From the IMG/VR virus record IMGVR_UViG_2695420817_000020: a stretch of 27,945 bases of DNA. One strand, written 5' to 3'. Source of the DNA: a virus (Duplodnaviria > Heunggongvirae > Uroviricota > Caudoviricetes). Of the stretch, positions 20,486-27,666 are shown in pieces. Made by a program: the position numbers and the translations under genes. How positions within the stretch are numbered: the stretch's first letter is position 1; every line of letters starts with the position of its first letter. The notes under the pieces were generated by a model, which saw nothing but the letters and a program-made list of their open reading frames with translations, was not told where the DNA came from and searched no databases.

Positions 20486-21530
20486 ATTTCAGCGCCCGAC
20501 GCTGGCAGAAAATATCAGTATGCTCCGTAACGATTTATTTGCCAGGCTGGACGTCAGCGACACGCTCCGGCGCATGGATGAAGACGTGCGGGCAAAGGTG
20601 TATGCGGCGGCGCTGCATACGGTTTACGGGTACATCGATTATCTGGCAATGAATATGCTGCCTGACCTGTGCGATGAGTCCTGGCTGGCGCGACATGCTG
20701 CGATGAAACGGTGTCCGCGCAAGGGGGCCACGGCTGCCAGCGGGTATATGCGCTGGGAAGGCGTCAGCGATGGCCTGAAGGTGACCGCCGGGAGTGTTAT
20801 TCAGCGCGATGACCTGGTTCAGTACACGGCAACTGCCGATGCAACCAGCGCCGGTGGTGTCCTGCGCGTGCCGATCGCCTGCTCAAGTGCAGGCGCGGTC
20901 GGTAACGCTGACGACGGTACGTCATTAATCCTGGTTACGCCGGTTAATGGTCTGCCGTCTTCCGGCGTGGCAGACACTCTGACAGGTGGATTTGATACTG
21001 AAGATCTGGAAACGTGGCGCGCCCGCGTCATTGAGCGGTATTACTGGACTCCTCAGGGCGGGGCTGACGGGGACTATGTTGTCTGGGCTAAAGAAGTGCC
21101 CGGCATTACCCGCGCATGGGCATACCGTCACTGGATGGGAACGGGGACTGTCGGTGTGATGATTGCCAGCAGTGACCTGATTAATCCCATTCCGGAAGAA
21201 TCAACGGAAACGGCGGCAAGACAACATATCGGGCCACTGGCCCCGGTGGCAGGCTCTGATTTGTATGTGTTCAGGCCGGTGGCGCATACGGTGGATTTTC
21301 ATATCCGTGTGACGCCGGACACACCGGAAATACGGGCTGCCATCACCGCGGAGTTGCGTTCGTTCCTGCTGCGTGATGGTTATCCGCAGGGAGAACTGAA
21401 GGTGTCGCGTATCAGTGAAGCGATTTCCGGTGCGAACGGGGAATACAGCCATCAGTTGCTTGCACCGGCGGAAAATATCTCCATTGCAAAAAATGAACTG
21501 GCGGTTCTGGGGACGATTTCATGGACGTGA
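20472..21530 (+). CDS. Baseplate J-like protein (Mu gp47-like)
   Basis: 352 aa in the conserved baseplate wedge position. Confidence 0.8.
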
Positions 21531-22105
21531 CAAACGATGATTACATCCGTCTGTTGTCGGCACTGCTGCCGCCCGGTCCGGCGTGGTCAGCCAGCGATCC
21601 GGCGATTGCCGGTGCGGCACCGTCATTAACCCGCGTTCATCAGCGTGCGGATGCCCTGATGCGGGAGCTGGATCCGCGCACCACCACCGAACTGATAAAT
21701 CGCTGGGAGCGTCTGTGCGGCCTGCCGGATGAATGTATTCCCGCAGGAACACAGACCCTTCGCCAGCGTCAGCAACGACTGGATGCGAAGGTTAACCTGG
21801 CGGGCGGCATCAACGAGGATTTTTATCTTGCACAGCTTGCTGCCCTGGGCAGACCAGATGCCACCATCACGCGATACGACAAAAGCACGTTCACCTGCTC
21901 ATCGGCCTGTACTGACGCGGTGAATGCGCCGGAATGGCGGTATTACTGGCAGGTCAACATGCCAACCACCACCAACACCACCTGGATGACATGTGGCGAT
22001 CCCTGTGATTCCGCACTGCGTATCTGGGGTGACACCGTTGTCGAGTGTGTGCTTAACAAACTCTGCCCGTCGCATACCTACGTAATTTTTAAATATCCGG
22101 AGTAA
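21521..22105 (+). CDS. Tail protein (Mu gp48-like / YmfQ-like)
   Basis: 194 aa, immediately upstream of the tail fibre gene. Confidence 0.7.
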
Positions 22106-22108
22106 TCC

Positions 22109-22882
22109 ATGCATCGTATAGACACGAAAACCGCGCAGAAGGATAAGTTCGGCGCGGGTAAGAACGGTTTTACCCGTGGTAACCCCCAGACTGGCACGCC
22201 TGCCACCGATCTGGATGATGACTACTTTGACATGTTGCAGGAGGAGCTTTGCAGCGTTGTGGAGGCATCCGGTGCCAGCCTGGAGAAGGGGCGGCATGAC
22301 CAGCTGCTTACCGCGCTTCGTGCGCTGCTGTTAAGCCGCAAGAATCCGTTTGGCGATATCAAATCGGATGGCACGGTGAAAACAGCTCTCGAAAACCTTG
22401 GTTTGGGAGAAGGTTCGGCATTACCCGTTGGTGTGCCTGTTCCATGGCCTTCAGCCACACCGCCAACAGGCTGGCTGAAATGCAACGGTGCGCCTTTTTC
22501 TGCAGAAGAATACCCGGAACTGGCAAAGGCTTATCCAACAAATAAATTGCCTGATTTACGCGGTGAATTCATTCGCGGCTGGGATGATGGGCGCGGGGTG
22601 GATGCTGGTCGAGATTTGTTATCATCTCAAGGGGATGCAATAAGAAATATAACTGGAGGATTTAATATCAGACCTGGATCGAGCAGTGCTTTGATTACTT
22701 TCGCTGCTGGTGCTCTTAAAGTAGCATCAAGAGTTCAAAGTGCTTATGTCACAAACACTTCAGCCACTGACAAAATTGCTGAAGGTATAGACTTCGATGC
22801 CAGTGCTGCTCCTGGAGTTGTAACTGCATCTGAAAACCGTCCAAGAAATATCGCGTTTAACTACATTGTAAGGGCAGCATGA
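22109..22882 (+). CDS. Tail fibre protein (constant N-terminus plus variable C-terminus in the current orientation)
   Basis: 257 aa. A recombination crossover site lies about 97 codons in. Followed by a tail-fibre assembly gene. Confidence 0.8.
22386..22411. repeat. Invertase crossover site (gix/hix/pix-like), left, inside the tail fibre gene
   Basis: 26 bp CTCTCGAAAACC TT GGTTTGGGAGAA. The inner half-site is a perfect inverted copy of the inner half-site at 24244-24255. Confidence 0.75.
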
Positions 22883-23484
22883 TGAATAAAGTTGTATTAA
22901 ATAGTGAGCTTATTGCTACAAAGGCGGGGAGTGTTACCGTTTATAATTATGATGGCGAAACACGGGAATATATTGCCACATCAACTGAACATCTTGCTGT
23001 CGGTGTCGGTATCCCGGTATGTTCTTGTTTAGATGCTCCGAGCTCAAACAAAGCTGGTTATGCAATCTGCCGTTCGGCAGATTTAAACTCATGGGAATAT
23101 GTGCCAGACCATCGCGGTGAAACGGTCTATAGCACCGAAACAGGAGAATCAAAAGAAATCACCGCTCTGGGTGATTACCCTGAAAATACAACCACTATCG
23201 CCCCGTTAACGCCATATGATAAATGGAATGGTGAAAAATGGGTGGCGGATACTGAGGCACAGCATAGCGCCGCAGTAGAAGCGGCAGAAGCACAGCGCCA
23301 GTCACTGATTGATGCTGCAATGGCTTCCATTGGTCTGATTCAGCTGAAATTACAGGCCGGACGGAATCTGACGCAGGCAGAAACCGCCAGACTTAACGCT
23401 GCGCTGGATTACATTGACGCGGTGACGGCAACAGATACCAGCACGGCGCCGGATGTCATCTGGCCTGAACTGCCGGAGGCGTAG
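22879..23484 (+). CDS. Tail fibre assembly protein (Tfa/U-like)
   Basis: 201 aa with Tfa-like C-terminus (...[25 protein letters not shown]). Confidence 0.8.
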
Positions 23485-23896
23485 GCCATTCAATATCTGG
23501 CGCACTGGAAGTATCGACCAGTTCCAGTGCGTCCAGATAATCCAGCCACAAATTATATTGCGCCAGTTCCTCACCTTTCAGGCGACCAATCGCCGCTTTA
23601 CCAGGCCATTGCTTACTGTGTGTGTATTCGTTGACCTGATTAATCAATTGCTGCTTTTCCAGTTCGGCTGCGGCAATTTGTTCCTCATGAGTTGGCGGTG
23701 GAATATCAATCCATGCAGGCATTCCGTCGATGACACCTCTGTATTTTCCTTCTGGTGCTTCCTTCATAAATTCGGCGGCAACAGTGTCGTCAATTTCGAT
23801 TCCATCACCGGGCCATTCGCCGGATTCCTGATAAGCGATTTTAAGCTCCACAGGGAAAAACGCATTTTTATCGGCACTGAAAATATATTTCTGCAT
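23456..23896 (-). CDS. Alternative tail fibre assembly protein (Tfa'/U'-like)
   Basis: 146 aa on the opposite strand with Tfa-like C-terminus (...[21 protein letters not shown]). Convergent with the + strand Tfa inside the invertible segment. Confidence 0.75.
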   Translation of the reverse strand: MQKYIFSADKNAFFPVELKIAYQESGEWPGDGIEIDDTVAAEFMKEAPEGKYRGVIDGMPAWIDIPPPTHEEQIAAAELEKQQLINQVNEYTHSKQWPGKAAIGRLKGEELAQYNLWLDYLDALELVDTSSAPDIEWPTPPAVQAR

Positions 23897-23898
23897 TT

Positions 23899-24257
23899 CT
23901 ACCGTCCTATCGAAATATAACTGAATCTGTATTGCTGTGAGATATCACTGGTTGCCACACGCCACGCTGAATTACTGATATGTTCAAAATTTACAGACAA
24001 AACCTGCGGGGCAGGATTCGACGGGGCTGACTGAACGGCATCAGACATAACACTGACTGAAACCATCGGCTGATTAGGGAATGGTATAGGGAAGTGTCCA
24101 CTGATAAAGCGGGTCGTGTTTCCTGAAAAAGTGCCAAACTGAACAATATATCCACCTGGTAGCCTGAACCATCCCGAACCAGAAGCGAATGCTCCCATAT
24201 CCGGTATCTGATTATCTCCTGTGCCCACATCCCTTTTCGCCGCTTCTCCCAAACCAA
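23899..24257 (-). CDS. Alternative tail fibre C-terminal segment (S'-like); no own start, expressed only after inversion
   Basis: Minus-strand frame is open from the right crossover core to 23899. After inversion it joins in frame to the constant N-terminus (…ENLGLGE + AAKRDVGTG…). Confidence 0.7.
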
Positions 24258-24269
24258 CCTTTCAAATAT
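24244..24269. repeat. Invertase crossover site, right, just upstream of the invertase gene
   Basis: 26 bp TTCTCCCAAACC AA CCTTTCAAATAT, closely resembling hix/gix-type sites. Confidence 0.75.
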
Positions 24270-24328
24270 TTTTCTGAATCAGGTGATATTTCGCCTCTTC
24301 TCCTGTTTTTACAACAGGAGAAGCACTC

Positions 24329-24892
24329 ATGATTTACGGGTATGTTCGTGTATCAACAAATCATCAGGATACAGAGTTGCAACGTCTTGCACTTGAGTCA
24401 GCTGGCTGTGAGCGAATTTATGAAGAATATGCCAGTGGCAGAACAGCTAATCGCCCTGTGTTAAAGGAATTAATTACGGTGATGAAAAGTGGAGATGAGT
24501 TGATTGTCTGGAAGTTAGATCGGATAGGGAGAAATGTGCTGCATGCGCTATTGATGTTTCAAAATCTGCACGAAAAAGGTGTTAATTTTCGGAGTATTAC
24601 AGATGGCGTAGACCTGAAAACAGCAAGTGGTCGCTATAATTTCCGTAATATTCTTTCTGCTGCGCAGTATGAATCTGATTTGAATAGCGAGCGAACTTTA
24701 GCTGGTTTGGCTATTGCCAGATCCAAAGGCCGGATTGGTGGGCGTAGACCGAAGTTTAGCGACGAGCAGTGGCAACAGATGGGAGCGCTCATAGCGGCAG
24801 GGAAATCACGGCGTTATGTTGCACGTATCTATAACGTTGGGCTATCAACCCTATATAAACGATTTCCTGTTACTGGCATTCAAACGAAATAA
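24329..24892 (+). CDS. Site-specific DNA invertase, serine recombinase (Pin/Gin/Hin family)
   Basis: 187 aa. N-terminal catalytic motif YVRVST, ...WKLDRIGR..., C-terminal helix-turn-helix (LSTLYKRF). Adjacent to the invertible tail-fibre segment. Confidence 0.9.
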   Translation: MIYGYVRVSTNHQDTELQRLALESAGCERIYEEYASGRTANRPVLKELITVMKSGDELIVWKLDRIGRNVLHALLMFQNLHEKGVNFRSITDGVDLKTASGRYNFRNILSAAQYESDLNSERTLAGLAIARSKGRIGGRRPKFSDEQWQQMGALIAAGKSRRYVARIYNVGLSTLYKRFPVTGIQTK

Positions 24893-24932
24893 TTTAAAAG
24901 CAATTTAAAGAGTTATTTGTCTAATGTTGGAA

Positions 24933-24968
24933 GCCGCAGCCACGTCGTATGCAAGAACGTGCTGCGGC
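24933..24968. terminator. Hairpin between convergent invertase and DinI-like genes (possible bidirectional terminator)
   Basis: GCCGCAGCCACG ... CGTG-CTGCGGC stem of about 11 bp with one bulge. No strong T-run on either side. Confidence 0.35.
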
Positions 24969-25035
24969 TGGCTGGCGAACTTTCGATAGTGCGAGTATTG
25001 AATGATTTCCAGCCGTTACCGATTTTACGTGTTAA

Positions 25036-25284
25036 TTAGTGAACAAACCACTCGTCAGCAGATTCCCAGGTATCTTTCAGAGTCTCCTGAACAAAAGTTT
25101 TTGCAGAATCCTTATCTGCGGTGCGTGTAACAGAAAGGCCATCGTTGCTGGTGGCTTTTACGATCACCTCTACATCGTCATAACGTTTACTGATGCGTCG
25201 GGTTAATTCTTCCTTTAACGCATCCACAGCACCGGTTGGCATTTTAGTCATTTTTTCTTTGGCTATGCAGATTTCAATACGCAT
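25036..25284 (-). CDS. DinI-family protein (SOS-inducible RecA modulator homologue)
   Basis: 82 aa. MRIEI.IAK...P.GA.DAL..EL..RI...TWESADEWF resembles E. coli DinI. Two LexA boxes in its promoter. Confidence 0.8.
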
Positions 25285-25297
25285 AAAAGTCCCTCTA

Positions 25298-25349
25298 TAC
25301 TGTGTTTGTATACAGTATTATTTTTAACTGTATGGATAAACAGTGTCAA
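25298..25349 (-). promoter_or_regulatory. SOS promoter with two LexA boxes upstream of the DinI-like gene
   Basis: TACTGTgtttgtatACAGTA (25298-25317) and aCTGTatggataaACAGt (25327-25344), both CTGT-N8-ACAG. On the minus strand a perfect TTGACA -35 lies at 25344-25349. Confidence 0.7.
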
Positions 25350-26443
25350 GAGGTCTTATTTCTGCTCCTTTGGAGCTCTTCAAAACGATTATGTAAAGAT
25401 TTCGGATACAGTTCGGTATATACCTGCCATAGCACGTTTAATGAACGATGCCCTGTAACCTGGGCGACTTCCTCAATACTAAAACCAGCCTCAAATAAGC
25501 GACTTGCCCCTTCTCTACGCAAATCATGGTATCGCAGATCTTTAATACCTAATTTGCTTCTTACCCTCTGGAATCCCGCAGTAACAGAAGTGCTGTTATA
25601 TGGAAAAATGAATTCTGATTTTTTGGGTTGTCGTTGGACGATATCCCAGGCTTCCCCAAGCAAGGCTACTTTCATATGGTTGCCTTCCTTTTTACGTGGA
25701 TCTTTCCTGTCTCTTACGAGTATGGATTTTTGTTCCTGATCGAGATCCTCCCATCGTAATCGGCATACTTCACCGATTCGCATACATGACCACACAGAAA
25801 ATTTGAGGATATCAACGAACGGAATTTTTGAGCATTTATGTGTAGATCGTTGTTGAAGACCTTCAATGAGCATGTCCAGTTCATCAGATGCCGGTCTACG
25901 ATTACGACGATTTGATTTACCAATTAAACCAAGTTTAAGTAGATATGGACGAGCGGCTTTTGCTGGGTTTGATGTGTAATTAATTCCATATACAGGTTTG
26001 GCAGCATCCAGAACACTGCCAAGATAACTAACATCGTGGCTAACTGTAGCTGGACCTGCACCAGCGTTGTTTCTTAGCCTGCAATGTTCAATTACGTCAT
26101 TTTCTGTCAGTTCAGATAGTTTGATCGCGGAGATGTCACTATCCATAAGCAGTTCCAGCACATATCTTTTAGTACGGCCTGCTTTACCTCCGGCATTTGG
26201 GTCATTTAAATATTTGTGTAGTAAGTCACGGACTGTAAGTCCGTCAACTGCATTTGATGATGGAATGCCATATAGATCTAATTCCATCACTTTCTGTGTG
26301 CCCCATGTTTTGGCATGAGCATGTTTAGGGAATGTTTTGCTTTCCCTGTAAGTGATAACACCTTTTTCTTTGATAATCACATTACAGCGATAGCGTGGTG
26401 TGCCATCGGATTTTAGTCGTTTCTCTATGTTATAGTACGCCAT
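25346..26443 (-). CDS. Tyrosine-type phage integrase (dusA-associated)
   Basis: 365 aa. C-terminal catalytic region (...YHDLRREGASR...GHRSLNVLWQVYTELY). GAGG RBS. Divergent from dusA, 88 bp away. Confidence 0.9.
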   Translation of the reverse strand: MAYYNIEKRLKSDGTPRYRCNVIIKEKGVITYRESKTFPKHAHAKTWGTQKVMELDLYGIPSSNAVDGLTVRDLLHKYLNDPNAGGKAGRTKRYVLELLMDSDISAIKLSELTENDVIEHCRLRNNAGAGPATVSHDVSYLGSVLDAAKPVYGINYTSNPAKAARPYLLKLGLIGKSNRRNRRPASDELDMLIEGLQQRSTHKCSKIPFVDILKFSVWSCMRIGEVCRLRWEDLDQEQKSILVRDRKDPRKKEGNHMKVALLGEAWDIVQRQPKKSEFIFPYNSTSVTAGFQRVRSKLGIKDLRYHDLRREGASRLFEAGFSIEEVAQVTGHRSLNVLWQVYTELYPKSLHNRFEELQRSRNKTS

Positions 26444-26462
26444 TACACGACCTCGTTATTTC

Positions 26463-26498
26463 GGGTTCCCATAAAACGTGGGAACCTGTGCGGGAACC
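26463..26498. repeat. Clustered GGGAACC / GGTTCCC repeats in the int-dusA intergenic region
   Basis: GGGTTCCC (26463-26470), GGGAACC (26480-26486), GGGAACC (26492-26498); the first two form an inverted repeat. Candidate recombinase or regulator binding sites (inference). Confidence 0.35.
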
Positions 26499-26531
26499 TA
26501 ACGCGAGAAAAATAGCCTGAAATGTTCAAAA

Positions 26532-27569
26532 ATGCACGATAATCATGAAACACAAAAAATTAATCAAACCAGCGTGATGCCTGAAAAAACTGGTGTTTAC
26601 TGGAATTCTCGGTTTAGCATTGCTCCTATGCTTGACTGGACGGACAGACATTGCCGTTATTTCCTGCGTCTGCTTTCCCGCAATACGTTGCTGTATACCG
26701 AAATGGTGACCACAGGGGCGATTATTCACGGTAAAGGTGATTACCTGGCGTACAGTGAAGAAGAACATCCGGTAGCGTTGCAACTCGGGGGTAGCGATCC
26801 GGCGGCGCTGGCACAGTGTGCGAAGCTGGCAGAAGCGCGTGGATATGATGAGATCAACCTGAATGTCGGCTGCCCGTCTGACCGGGTGCAGAACGGCATG
26901 TTTGGTGCGTGTCTGATGGGTAATGCGCAGCTGGTTGCCGACTGCGTGAAAGCGATGCGCGATGTGGTGTCGATTCCGGTGACGGTGAAAACGCGTATTG
27001 GCATCGATGATCAGGACAGCTATGAATTTCTCTGCGATTTCATCAACACCGTTTCCGGCAAAGGTGAGTGTGAGATGTTCATCATCCACGCACGTAAAGC
27101 CTGGCTTTCTGGGTTAAGTCCGAAAGAAAACCGTGAGATCCCGCCTCTCGATTATCCGCGTGTGTATCAACTGAAGCGTGACTTTCCGCATCTGACGATG
27201 TCGATTAACGGTGGTATCAAGTCGCTGGAAGAAGCTAAAGCGCATTTGCAACATATGGATGGCGTGATGGTCGGGCGCGAGGCGTATCAGAATCCGGGTA
27301 TTCTGGCGGCGGTAGACCGAGAGATTTTTGGTTCCTCGGATACTGATGCTGATCCGGTGGCGGTAGTGCGCGCCATGTATCCGTACATTGAGCGTGAACT
27401 CAGCCAGGGTACGTATCTCGGCCATATTACCCGGCATATGCTGGGCTTGTTCCAGGGTATTCCTGGCGCGCGGCAGTGGCGGCGTTATTTAAGTGAAAAT
27501 GCCCATAAAGCGGGTGCAGACATTAATGTGCTGGAACACGCGCTCAAACTGGTGGCGGATAAGCGTTAA
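26532..27569 (+). CDS. dusA: tRNA-dihydrouridine synthase A
   Basis: 345 aa, TIM-barrel Dus motifs, near-identical over most of its length to E. coli DusA as I recall it. Followed by pspG as in E. coli. Confidence 0.9.
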
Positions 27570-27598
27570 CTTTTCACCAAAAAGTAGTCAAATTCACC

Positions 27599-27627
27599 AC
27601 GCCCTGCGCACCGTCGCGGGGCGTTTT
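27599..27627 (+). terminator. Putative terminator after dusA
   Basis: ACGCCCTGCG - CACCGT - CGCGGGGCGT stem with one mismatch, followed by a short T-rich run. Confidence 0.4.
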
Positions 27628-27650
27628 GCTGTTAAATCAATAGATTATTT

Positions 27651-27666
27651 TTGGCATGATTCTTGT
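27651..27666 (+). promoter_or_regulatory. Candidate sigma-54 (-24/-12) promoter of pspG
   Basis: TTGGCATGATTCTTGT matches TGGCAC-N5-TTGC at 14 of 16 positions including the GG at -24. pspG is an established PspF/sigma-54 target in E. coli. Confidence 0.45.

Follow-up and report, generated by a model that had tools for sequence, protein, structure and literature searches.

A site-specific inversion of the Gin/Cin/Pin type very probably sets which of two alternative fibre tips is built by an SfV-like prophage integrated at dusA, found within a stretch of 27,945 nucleotides that we refer to as the window. Comparisons of sequence indicate a real switch that is almost certainly active, and reveal its close homology to the invertible P segment carried by the E. 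coli prophage e14. Because tail-fibre inversion has been textbook knowledge since Mu, P1 and e14, the switch adds little in itself and is an ordinary, complete example of a well-known phage DNA switch; literature searches returned no description of it in the dusA prophage.

In the mechanism proposed here, the late operon would be read through a constant, 97-codon N-terminal fibre part (Sc) into whichever cassette faces it, while a serine invertase encoded downstream would bind two 26-bp sites, cut at their central TT/AA dinucleotide and rotate the strands. This would invert the 1.86-kb segment, so that a gp53-like tip would become fused to Sc and be expressed with a TfaP-like chaperone. We infer that the local invertase is the catalyst, that inversion takes place in the strain from which the window derives, and that receptor specificity differs between the two tips.

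Architecture of the switch

The host element has SfV-like structural genes, shares 98% identity with SKA5, an SfV-like genome, and ends with a tyrosine integrase (25346-26443) beside dusA and pspG. Its late operon is full, comprising Q, lysis, terminase, portal, capsid, sheath, tape measure and baseplate genes. Given this complete operon and the 98% identity to SKA5, the fibres are expected to be present in virions. The features of the switch and its surroundings are as follows.

21521-22105: YmfQ/Mu gp48-like baseplate gene of the late operon, preceding the fibre gene
22109-22399, + strand: Sc, the constant N-terminal fibre part (codons 1-97 of ORF 22109-22882), outside the invertible segment
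22386-22411: site 1, the distal crossover site, a near-palindrome reading CTCTCGAAAACC-TT-GGTTTGGGAGAA on the + strand
22400-22882, + strand: Sv, the C-terminus now expressed, of the e14 StfE type (Pfam Collar PF07484, E 3e-15)
22879-23484, + strand: U, TfaE-type assembly chaperone, partner of Sv (Pfam Caudo_TAP, E 3e-32)
23456-23896, - strand: U', alternative TfaP-type chaperone, partner of Sv' (Pfam Caudo_TAP, E 1e-33)
23899-24255, - strand: Sv', the silent alternative C-terminus (Pfam Gp53-like_C PF21882, E 3e-9)
24244-24269: site 2, the invertase-proximal crossover site, reading TTCTCCCAAACC-AA-CCTTTCAAATAT
24297-24323, + strand: 11-bp stem-loop in which the Shine-Dalgarno sequence of the invertase (AGGAGA) is paired
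24329-24892, + strand: serine DNA invertase of the PinL clade, 187 aa (Pfam Resolvase, E 3e-36, and HTH_7, E 7e-12)
24347-24418: candidate stretch matching the Cin recombinational enhancer in position (nt 19-90 of the invertase gene)

The two crossover sites lie in inverted orientation, 1858 bp apart from centre to centre, in agreement with an earlier, sequence-only reading of this DNA that had put their spacing at about 1.86 kb. On the + strand their cores read TT (site 1) and AA (site 2), i.e. one core inverted, and the two inner halves match perfectly as inverted copies. The same region was returned by a repeat finder as the top inverted repeat (22393-22412 / 24243-24262; 20 nt, 90%), and the 14-mer TTCTCCCAAACCAA is present in exactly two copies in the 27.9-kb window, one per strand, where 0.21 matches would be expected by chance with up to two mismatches allowed. 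The window thus contains two inverted 26-bp sites, each composed of 12-bp half-sites on either side of an identical, asymmetric 2-bp core, as is typical of the invertase group, with one outer half weak. The resemblance to hix/gix that had been proposed for both sites holds for site 1, which alone is a near-palindrome of this type, but not for the outer half of site 2, which agrees with the canonical half-site in only 5 positions out of 12 and reads CCTTTC rather than the GGTTTT given previously.

Site 1 sits within the fibre gene, where it encodes ...ENLGLGE. Its crossover dinucleotide falls in codon 97, as the sequence-only reading had it (about 97 codons from the start), and site 2, said to lie just upstream of the invertase, does precede an intact invertase gene. 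Homology of Sc to the phages SfV, SfII and SfI extends to 22412 and then ends. Between the sites, ORFs and Pfam domains agree with the two convergent pairs of fibre tip and assembly protein that had been described, the two chaperone genes being convergent with a 29-bp overlap. Sv is 62% identical to e14 StfE and its paired chaperone 88% identical to e14 TfaE, while the chaperone paired with Sv' is 53% identical to e14 TfaP; NCBIfam assigned no specific family to the fibre parts, the chaperones or the invertase. The Sv tip is low in GC, which falls to 41% across 22600-23000, and it is rare: the exact 257-aa fibre was found on 4 contigs only, and an identical Sv is also recorded as orphan ORFs of 159 and 173 aa, i.e. 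in the silent position.

The window shows one orientation only, in which the collar-type tip and TfaE-like chaperone face Sc and Sv' is left without an N-terminus. When the segment was inverted in silico, Sc was joined to Sv' in frame, giving an open 213-aa fusion (...ENLGLGEAAKRDVGTG...ISIGR) of the kind that had been predicted. The silent cassette is closed on the minus strand by an in-frame TGA (24262-24264); previously placed just outside the site, this codon is in fact found inside the outer half of site 2. A simple promoter/terminator scan around the switch revealed no excess over the shuffled expectation.

Related prophages in the opposite orientation

The same dusA prophage is present in E. 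coli GZ2408P, where the flanks are 97.5% and 99.4% identical to those of the window and the invertase protein is 100% identical, and in this genome the segment is inverted relative to the window, with breakpoints at window positions 22398 and 24257. The predicted fusion of Sc to the gp53-like tip is annotated there as an intact gene, and likewise in phage SKA5. The same flip, together with an identical invertase, was found in SKA5 and in strain 2824, and in all three genomes the inverted homology stops at 22398 and 24257. On the site 1 side, homology to the flipped relatives breaks off at 22398-22412; with an inverted repeat of 14-20 bp, such comparisons locate the crossover within the repeat and not at the dinucleotide itself.

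All four junction types are present among 5426 complete E. coli genomes: Sc is joined to the collar-type tip in 512 and to the gp53-like tip in 19, while the invertase flank is joined to the gp53-like tip in 46 and to the collar-type tip in 144. Since near-identical prophages are found in opposite orientations and all four junctions occur, we conclude that inversion takes place in nature. RecA-type recombination was considered as a source of the flips and rejected: the repeat measures only 14-20 bp, a length at which RecA recombination is inefficient, and in every case the breakpoints fall at the sites. The flipped relatives, the four junctions and the experimental inversion of the e14 core site thus uphold the proposal that this is a working inversion switch.

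In a single locus (L035), the same four cassette genes were seen to lie between two different invertase genes. This arrangement was absent from all complete E. coli genomes searched, and L035 may therefore be a chimeric short-read assembly or, equally, a recombinant of two prophage switches.

The PinL-type invertase and the control of inversion

The invertase ORF is intact and couples a resolvase catalytic domain to a C-terminal HTH, the arrangement of a small serine DNA invertase. Its catalytic motif, YVRVS(9)T, is also intact, its recognition-helix and GRRPK motifs are the same as those of Pin, and its best match among solved structures is Gin (E 1e-56; gamma-delta resolvase, 1e-21). Its identity to Gin, Cin and Pin lies in the range 49-55% (PinE 55%, Cin 53%, Gin 49%), well below the 75-82% identity that PinE, Gin and Cin share among themselves. 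The protein is not a PinE orthologue and groups instead with PinL of phi80 (79% identity); it is 100% identical to the SKA5 protein, and the exact sequence is present on at least 1000 contigs. PinL-type invertases span the window protein, phi80 PinL and relatives in at least 10 enterobacterial genera, and searches of the literature brought up no functional study on PinL.

Across 92 PinL-clade loci, the silent cassette nearly always begins VGLGE..., after which at least six unrelated tip families follow, and a distal inverted site was identified within 3 kb in 47 of the 92. The conserved ...GLGE site marks the point at which receptor-binding tips are swapped, which is of modest value for phage engineering or typing. 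In addition, the outer half AA-CCTTT[T/C] has been kept in about 78 of 82 loci of the window's invertase clade, at the position where the PinE clade has AA-CGTTTATGAAAA. The conservation of this clade-specific CCTTT half amid diverging flanks suggests that the site is used by the neighbouring invertase.

In Hin, the residues K47, K/R48, K/R51, Q151, R154 and L155 contact Fis or the enhancer and are reported to be uniquely conserved in the family and invariant in the invertases that depend on Fis and the enhancer (PMC3798978). At these positions the window invertase has K, E, T, Q, A and L, so that three of the six are kept and positions 48, 51 and 154 depart from the reported residues (E, T and A). 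The classic Pin/Gin/Cin proteins (60 unique sequences) carry the reported residues at all six. Within the PinL clade (39 unique proteins), a basic residue occupies position 51 in 1 protein and position 154 in 11, while Q occurs at position 151 in 9 and L at position 155 in 14.

The candidate enhancer occupies the same nucleotides (19-90) of the invertase gene as the P1 record assigns to the enhancer in cin. An alignment with gin, cin and pin showed that the candidate Fis site at nt 23-37 has been kept and that the site at nt 71-85 is without its 5' G; neither this alignment nor a Fis-consensus scan yielded a convincing second Fis site in the invertase gene, the scan, a crude one, giving many weak hits in the first 150 nt. 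Profiles of third-codon-position entropy, in which 13 and then 47 PinL-clade genes were compared with 77 classic genes, gave only a weak signal over the region of the second Fis site: relative variation across codons 16-30 showed no drop in the PinL clade (1.18) and a slight drop in the classic genes (0.83-0.97).

The stem-loop at 24297-24323 lies in a 76-nt stretch (24270-24345) that folds at -24.8 kcal/mol (z = -3.8). This hairpin, which the phi80 record labels IR3, is kept upstream of the invertase relatives in Kluyvera, Trabulsiella, Pseudocitrobacter, Shimwellia and Apirhabdus; the base of the stem shows a C-G to T-A change. The hairpin probably limits translation of the invertase.

A broader idea, which we put forward tentatively and regard as rather doubtful, is that PinL-type invertases form a separate lineage of tail-fibre invertases that lacks the classic Fis/enhancer activation surfaces and uses an asymmetric proximal site, AAACC-AA-CCTTT, with inversion being independent of Fis or gated in some other way, e.g. 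by the hairpin at the ribosome-binding site. PinL represents an uncharacterised clade that, judged by its sequence, is predicted to relate to Fis in another way; if it were Fis-independent, it would give this group its first natural enterobacterial phage invertase that does not depend on Fis.

The lack of three of the six contact residues and the burial of the ribosome-binding site in a hairpin would also fit a scheme in which the segment is inverted in trans by other Pin-family invertases (PinE of e14, PinQ of Qin, or P2-like or Mu-like enzymes), the local PinL-type gene being weak, silent or uncoupled from Fis. The core sites are moreover those of e14, which PinE and PinQ invert, and the same cassettes adjoin Pin-type invertases in other prophages (P0018), cassettes being freely shared among phages with different invertases. 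We nevertheless consider catalysis in trans improbable: the local ORF is intact and its product 100% conserved on at least 1000 contigs, in many genera the PinL clade is accompanied by a pair of inverted sites, and the CCTTT outer half specific to this clade has been maintained beside the gene while the flanks diverge.

Relationship to e14 and other invertible segments

The inversion switch in the window can be set beside several known systems, of which e14 is the closest. The invertible P segment of e14 was reportedly described by Plasterk and van de Putte in 1985. The segment and PinE have been described by Goldberg et al. 2014 (PMC4272514) and Kirigo et al. 2025 (PMC12529663), and inversion at 5'-TTGGTTTGGGAGAAGG-3' / 5'-CCTTCTCCCAAACCAA-3' has been established by sequencing, PCR and qPCR (PMC12529663; PMC4272514). 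The e14 segment is inverted by both PinE and PinQ, its inversion makes chimeric proteins, and StfE2 blocks T2 adsorption (PMC12529663).

The two loci share the order ymfQ, constant N-terminus, site, tip and chaperone, reversed chaperone and tip, site and invertase, and each combines one StfE/TfaE-type cassette with one gp53-like/TfaP-type cassette. Both the crossover sites and the StfP constant part are held in common: site 1 is identical to the stfP-side site at 26 of 26 positions, the inner half and AA core of site 2 are shared (14/14), and Sc (residues 1 to about 101) is one residue off StfP. The segments are also similar in length, at 1797 bp in e14 and 1858 bp in the window. In contrast, PinE belongs to another clade and is 55% identical to the window invertase, and the proximal outer half is CGTTTATGAAAA in e14 rather than CCTTTCAAATAT. 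Furthermore, e14 is a remnant at icd, whereas the window prophage is complete, lies at dusA and is not part of the e14 element in icd. Relative to the MG1655 reference, the segment of the window is flipped, with the collar-type tip being the one expressed. The comparison shows the e14 P segment to be a decayed copy of a switch that SfV-like prophages of E. coli and Salmonella commonly retain in intact form.

Given that e14 has the same constant part and sites and that its StfE2 blocks T2 adsorption (PMC12529663), the switch could be imagined to serve chiefly the lysogen, with the fibre-derived protein of one orientation blocking the adsorption of other phages. This seems quite unlikely, as e14 is a defective remnant whereas the window prophage has a full late operon and 98% identity to the SfV-like SKA5 genome, and its silent cassette is closed by a TGA, without a leader such as e14 stfE has.

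The closest named invertases are PinL of phi80 and the related proteins of HK225, mEp237, mEpX1 and Citrobacter phage Omnitron (74-80% identity). The phi80 PinL group shares with the window the invariant helix-E motif GRYNFRNILSAAQYESDLNSERT, the hairpin at the ribosome-binding site and a proximal half-site of the CCTTT type; however, pinL in phi80 lies beside pseudogene fragments of a collar-type tip, without a working site pair, whereas the switch in the window is complete. Such cassette fragments beside phi80 pinL, the IS66 insertion that splits the invertase of strain 1217KP, the pseudogenised fibre of SM107 and the highly mosaic nature of the region, in which same-orientation coverage of the window's 3 kb stays below 80% in every complete genome, might point to a frozen relic, its orientation differences stemming from rare ancient events or homologous cassette exchange and its present flipping rate no longer meaningful, but this is highly improbable, as GZ2408P and SKA5 differ by a clean, site-bounded inversion between flanks that are 97-99% identical, every part is intact in the window, and so short a repeat would hardly sustain RecA recombination.

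As an inversion switch, the window locus also follows the plan of the Mu G segment with Gin and the P1 C segment with Cin, in which a constant Sc is combined with alternative Sv/Sv' tips and U/U' chaperones, and a small serine invertase adjoining the segment is paired with 26-bp sites that have a 2-bp core. Gin of Mu is also the nearest solved structure to the window invertase. The fibre is much shorter in the window (257 aa) than in Mu (504 aa) or P1 (about 990 aa), as is the segment (1.86 kb, compared with 3 kb and 4.2 kb), and the invariant Fis-contact residues of Gin and Cin are not retained in the window invertase.

Hin and its hix sites, which bring about flagellar phase variation in Salmonella, share with the window both the recombinase family and the architecture of the sites, and the outer half of hixR starts with CC in place of GG, as does that of site 2. 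Hin differs in that a promoter is flipped rather than coding cassettes, in that the hin gene is located within the segment, and in its Fis/enhancer contact residues, only half of which are conserved in the window invertase.

Organisation of the switch and its prophage

The sequence-only reading had proposed two 26-bp crossover sites in inverted orientation about 1.86 kb apart, and this was borne out: a repeat finder returned both sites as the top inverted repeat of the window (22393-22412 against 24243-24262; 20 nt, 90%), and they lie 1858 bp apart from centre to centre. Each strand of the window has a single copy of the 14-mer TTCTCCCAAACCAA, where 0.21 matches would be expected by chance at two or fewer mismatches.

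Features of the switch and of the prophage end
22109-22882, plus strand: fibre gene, tail-collar domain
22386-22411: site 1, the distal crossover site, CTCTCGAAAACC-TT-GGTTTGGGAGAA, read from the sequence
22879-23484, plus strand: chaperone gene, Caudo_TAP
23456-23896, minus strand: chaperone gene, Caudo_TAP
23899-24252, minus strand: tip gene, Gp53-like_C
24244-24269: site 2, the invertase-proximal crossover site, TTCTCCCAAACC-AA-CCTTTCAAATAT, read from the sequence
24329-24892, plus strand: invertase gene, Resolvase and HTH_7
25036-25284, minus strand: DinI-like gene
25300-25315 and 25328-25343: perfect LexA boxes (CTGT-N8-ACAG)
25346-26443, minus strand: tyrosine integrase gene, directly adjoining dusA
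26532-27569: dusA, followed by pspG

As proposed, one site lies about 97 codons into the fibre gene, codon 97 containing the central dinucleotide of site 1. The resemblance to hix/gix claimed for both sites held for site 1, which alone is a near-palindrome, but only in part for site 2, whose outer half, CCTTTCAAATAT, shares 5 of its 12 bases with the canonical half-site. The TGA closing the silent frame, previously placed just outside the site, falls within this outer half (24262-24264). ORFs and domains confirmed the arrangement of two convergent pairs of tip and chaperone genes followed by the invertase and, when the inverted sequence was built in silico, the constant N-terminal part of the fibre gene (Sc) read in frame into the minus-strand tip, as had been predicted, to give a 213-aa protein (...ENLGLGEAAKRDVGTG...ISIGR). 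The convergent chaperone genes run 29 bp into each other at their 3' ends (23456-23484); the overlap is bracketed by an 18-nt inverted repeat (23403-23420 / 23529-23546; 83% complementary), which arises because both chaperones share a C-terminal motif (LDYIDAV / LDYLDAL).

The surrounding prophage carries a full late region (Q antiterminator, endolysin, terminase, portal, capsid, sheath and tape measure), which also encodes Mu-type baseplate proteins gp45-48 and a YmfQ-family protein, and ends with the DinI-like gene and then the integrase adjoining dusA and pspG. Since the integrase lies directly beside dusA, the prophage belongs to the dusA-integrating class. Escherichia phage SKA5 matches the first 25 kb of the window at 98.4% identity over 89% of that stretch, and the SKA5 record holds a 123-nt dusA-like fragment at the corresponding place. 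The serotype-converting Shigella phages SfV, SfII and SfI are 97-98% identical to the structural genes; this homology spans the entire structural module and breaks off precisely where site 1 ends, at 22412; the site thus also marks a module-exchange boundary. The two LexA boxes (0.25 expected by chance across the whole window) closely precede the DinI-like gene, so that the prophage is predicted to carry an SOS-regulated DinI homologue, as does phi80 (dinL).

Opposite orientations in related prophages

The same prophage is found at dusA in E. coli GZ2408P, with flanks 97.5% and 99.4% identical to those of the window and an identical invertase protein. In that strain, the whole interval from window position 22398 to 24257 matches the opposite strand (86-96% identity), and the predicted fusion of Sc to the gp53-like tip is annotated as an intact gene. 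Phage SKA5 and strain 2824 are flipped in the same way, at identical breakpoints. We also searched 5426 complete E. coli genomes with 400-nt queries, counting a junction if at least 80% of it was present in one piece.

Junctions in complete E. coli genomes
Sc to collar tip: 512 genomes
Sc to gp53-like tip: 19 genomes
gp53-like tip to invertase flank: 46 genomes
collar tip to invertase flank: 144 genomes

The window's rare collar tip is also recorded as orphan ORFs of 159 and 173 aa, which represent the same tip in the silent position. Such comparisons place the crossover within the 14-20-bp repeat, a resolution that does not reach the dinucleotide. The flips in GZ2408P, SKA5 and 2824 and the four junctions support the earlier claim of a functional switch. 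The feature is a tail-fibre inversion switch of the e14/Mu/P1 type, and the SfV-like prophage at dusA that houses it is a common one.

It is possible, and compatible with this reading, that other Pin enzymes flip the segment in trans, given that the core sites are shared and that PinQ inverts the segment of e14, the cryptic prophage of E. coli K-12 (PMC12529663). A role in host defence, like that of e14 StfE2, would be secondary, as the prophage looks, from its gene content, able to make virions. A frozen relic is unlikely: although decayed versions occur in E. coli 1217KP (related locus L006, 3774-6787, in which an IS66 element splits the invertase gene and the segment is oriented as in the window), in E. 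coli SM107 (related locus L001, 3110-3631, with the fibre gene annotated as a truncated pseudogene) and in phi80 (cassette fragments only), all parts are intact in the window and clean flips distinguish prophages that are 97-99% identical.

A PinL-clade invertase

Judged by its fold and sites, the window protein that probably drives this inversion switch is a DNA invertase. Its closest named relative is PinL of phi80 (79% identity), after which we name its clade, and the SKA5 protein is 100% identical. Identity to Gin, Cin and PinE is 49-55%, whereas these are 75-82% identical among themselves. Public contigs encoding exactly this protein, from E. coli and Salmonella, number at least 1000, and relatives of 65-82% identity occur in Kluyvera, Trabulsiella, Pseudocitrobacter, Morganella, Erwinia, Citrobacter, Shimwellia and Apirhabdus.

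Dimers of Gin, Cin, Pin and Hin bind two sites, synapse and cut both strands with a 2-nt stagger, before a 180-degree rotation and religation. By homology, dimers of the window invertase would bind sites 1 and 2 and synapse, both strands would be cut at the central TT/AA with the same stagger, and rotation through 180 degrees and religation would follow, the asymmetric core forcing inversion rather than deletion. The invertase shares a GRRPK arm and a recognition helix (G-x-STLYKRFP) with Pin, which fits the identical inner half-sites. Transcription of the cassettes would come from the upstream late operon, so that product would be made only from the cassette joined to Sc and the chaperone behind it.

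An 11-bp hairpin, CTTCTCCTGTT-TTTAC-AACAGGAGAAG (24297-24323), pairs the Shine-Dalgarno sequence of the invertase; the 76-nt stretch containing it folds at -24.8 kcal/mol (z = -3.8). Relatives from five further genera keep it ahead of their own invertase genes, with one compensatory change (C-G to T-A at the stem base), and it is annotated as IR3 in the phi80 record. The hairpin is probably a translational brake, which would keep invertase levels, and hence the flipping rate, low.

Six residues are reported to set apart, by their conservation, the invertases that depend on Fis and the enhancer: Hin K47, K/R48, K/R51, Q151, R154 and L155 (McLean et al., eLife 2013, PMC3798978). All 60 unique classic-clade (Pin/Gin/Cin) proteins from the compared loci have the reported residues at all six positions. 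The window invertase, with K, E, T, Q, A and L, departs from this signature, and among 39 unique PinL-clade proteins position 51 is basic in one, Q151 is found in 9, a basic residue at 154 in 11 and L155 in 14. The helix-E start GRYNFRNILSAAQYESDLNSERT is invariant in the PinL clade and different from that of the classic clade; Fis-independent mutations of Hin and Gin map to this region. A candidate Fis enhancer in the 5' coding region of the invertase gene keeps one of its two putative Fis sites, and the other lacks its 5' G. This uncharacterised PinL-clade invertase thus fails one published family signature and may differ in its dependence on Fis. We consider it unlikely that inversion across the clade needs no Fis or is gated in some other way.

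The site next to the invertase varies together with the clade: about 78 of 82 PinL-clade loci have AA-CCTTT[T/C] there, and most PinE-clade loci have AA-CGTTTATGAAAA. Beyond this site, the sequence diverges. In a further related locus, L035 (IMGVR_UViG_2671180349_000011, 436-3564), the window's four cassette genes are bounded on the left by a classic Pin-type gene and on the right by a PinL-type gene, without the constant fibre part; over its right flank the locus shares 99.97% identity with window 24243-27889. This pin-segment-pinL arrangement was found in no complete E. coli genome, and L035 represents either recombination between a pair of prophage switches or a chimera of short-read assembly.

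Tip exchange and likeness to the e14 P segment

In nearly all of 92 PinL-clade loci, the silent cassette beside the invertase starts with the site-encoded peptide VGLGE..., and then runs into a tip from one of six or more unrelated families, among them collar, gp53-like and glycine-rich; a distal inverted site was present in 47 of the 92 within the 3 kb available. The common start followed by unrelated tips suggests that the site serves both as crossover point and as a junction for tip exchange between phages, a view that fits the end of SfV homology and a low-GC patch over 22600-23000. GC content drops from about 55% to 41% within 22600-23100 (the fibre tip and the first part of the chaperone gene), related genomes are unaligned over roughly 22650-23200, with exact bounds that vary by relative, and the exact 257-aa fibre is found on only 4 public contigs. 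The receptor-binding tip thus looks as if it had been acquired recently.

The switch is closely homologous to the invertible P segment of e14. Gene order is shared (ymfQ, stfP, tfaP, tfaE, stfE, pinE), the stfP-side site is identical to site 1 at 26 of 26 positions, and the pinE-side site has its inner half and AA core in common with site 2. StfP is one residue apart from the constant fibre part, and TfaE is 88% identical to the expressed window chaperone. The window differs from e14 in the MG1655 reference in that a StfE-type collar tip occupies the expressed position. For e14, whose core repeat is the same as that found here, inversion has been shown by sequencing, PCR and qPCR (PMC12529663; PMC4272514).
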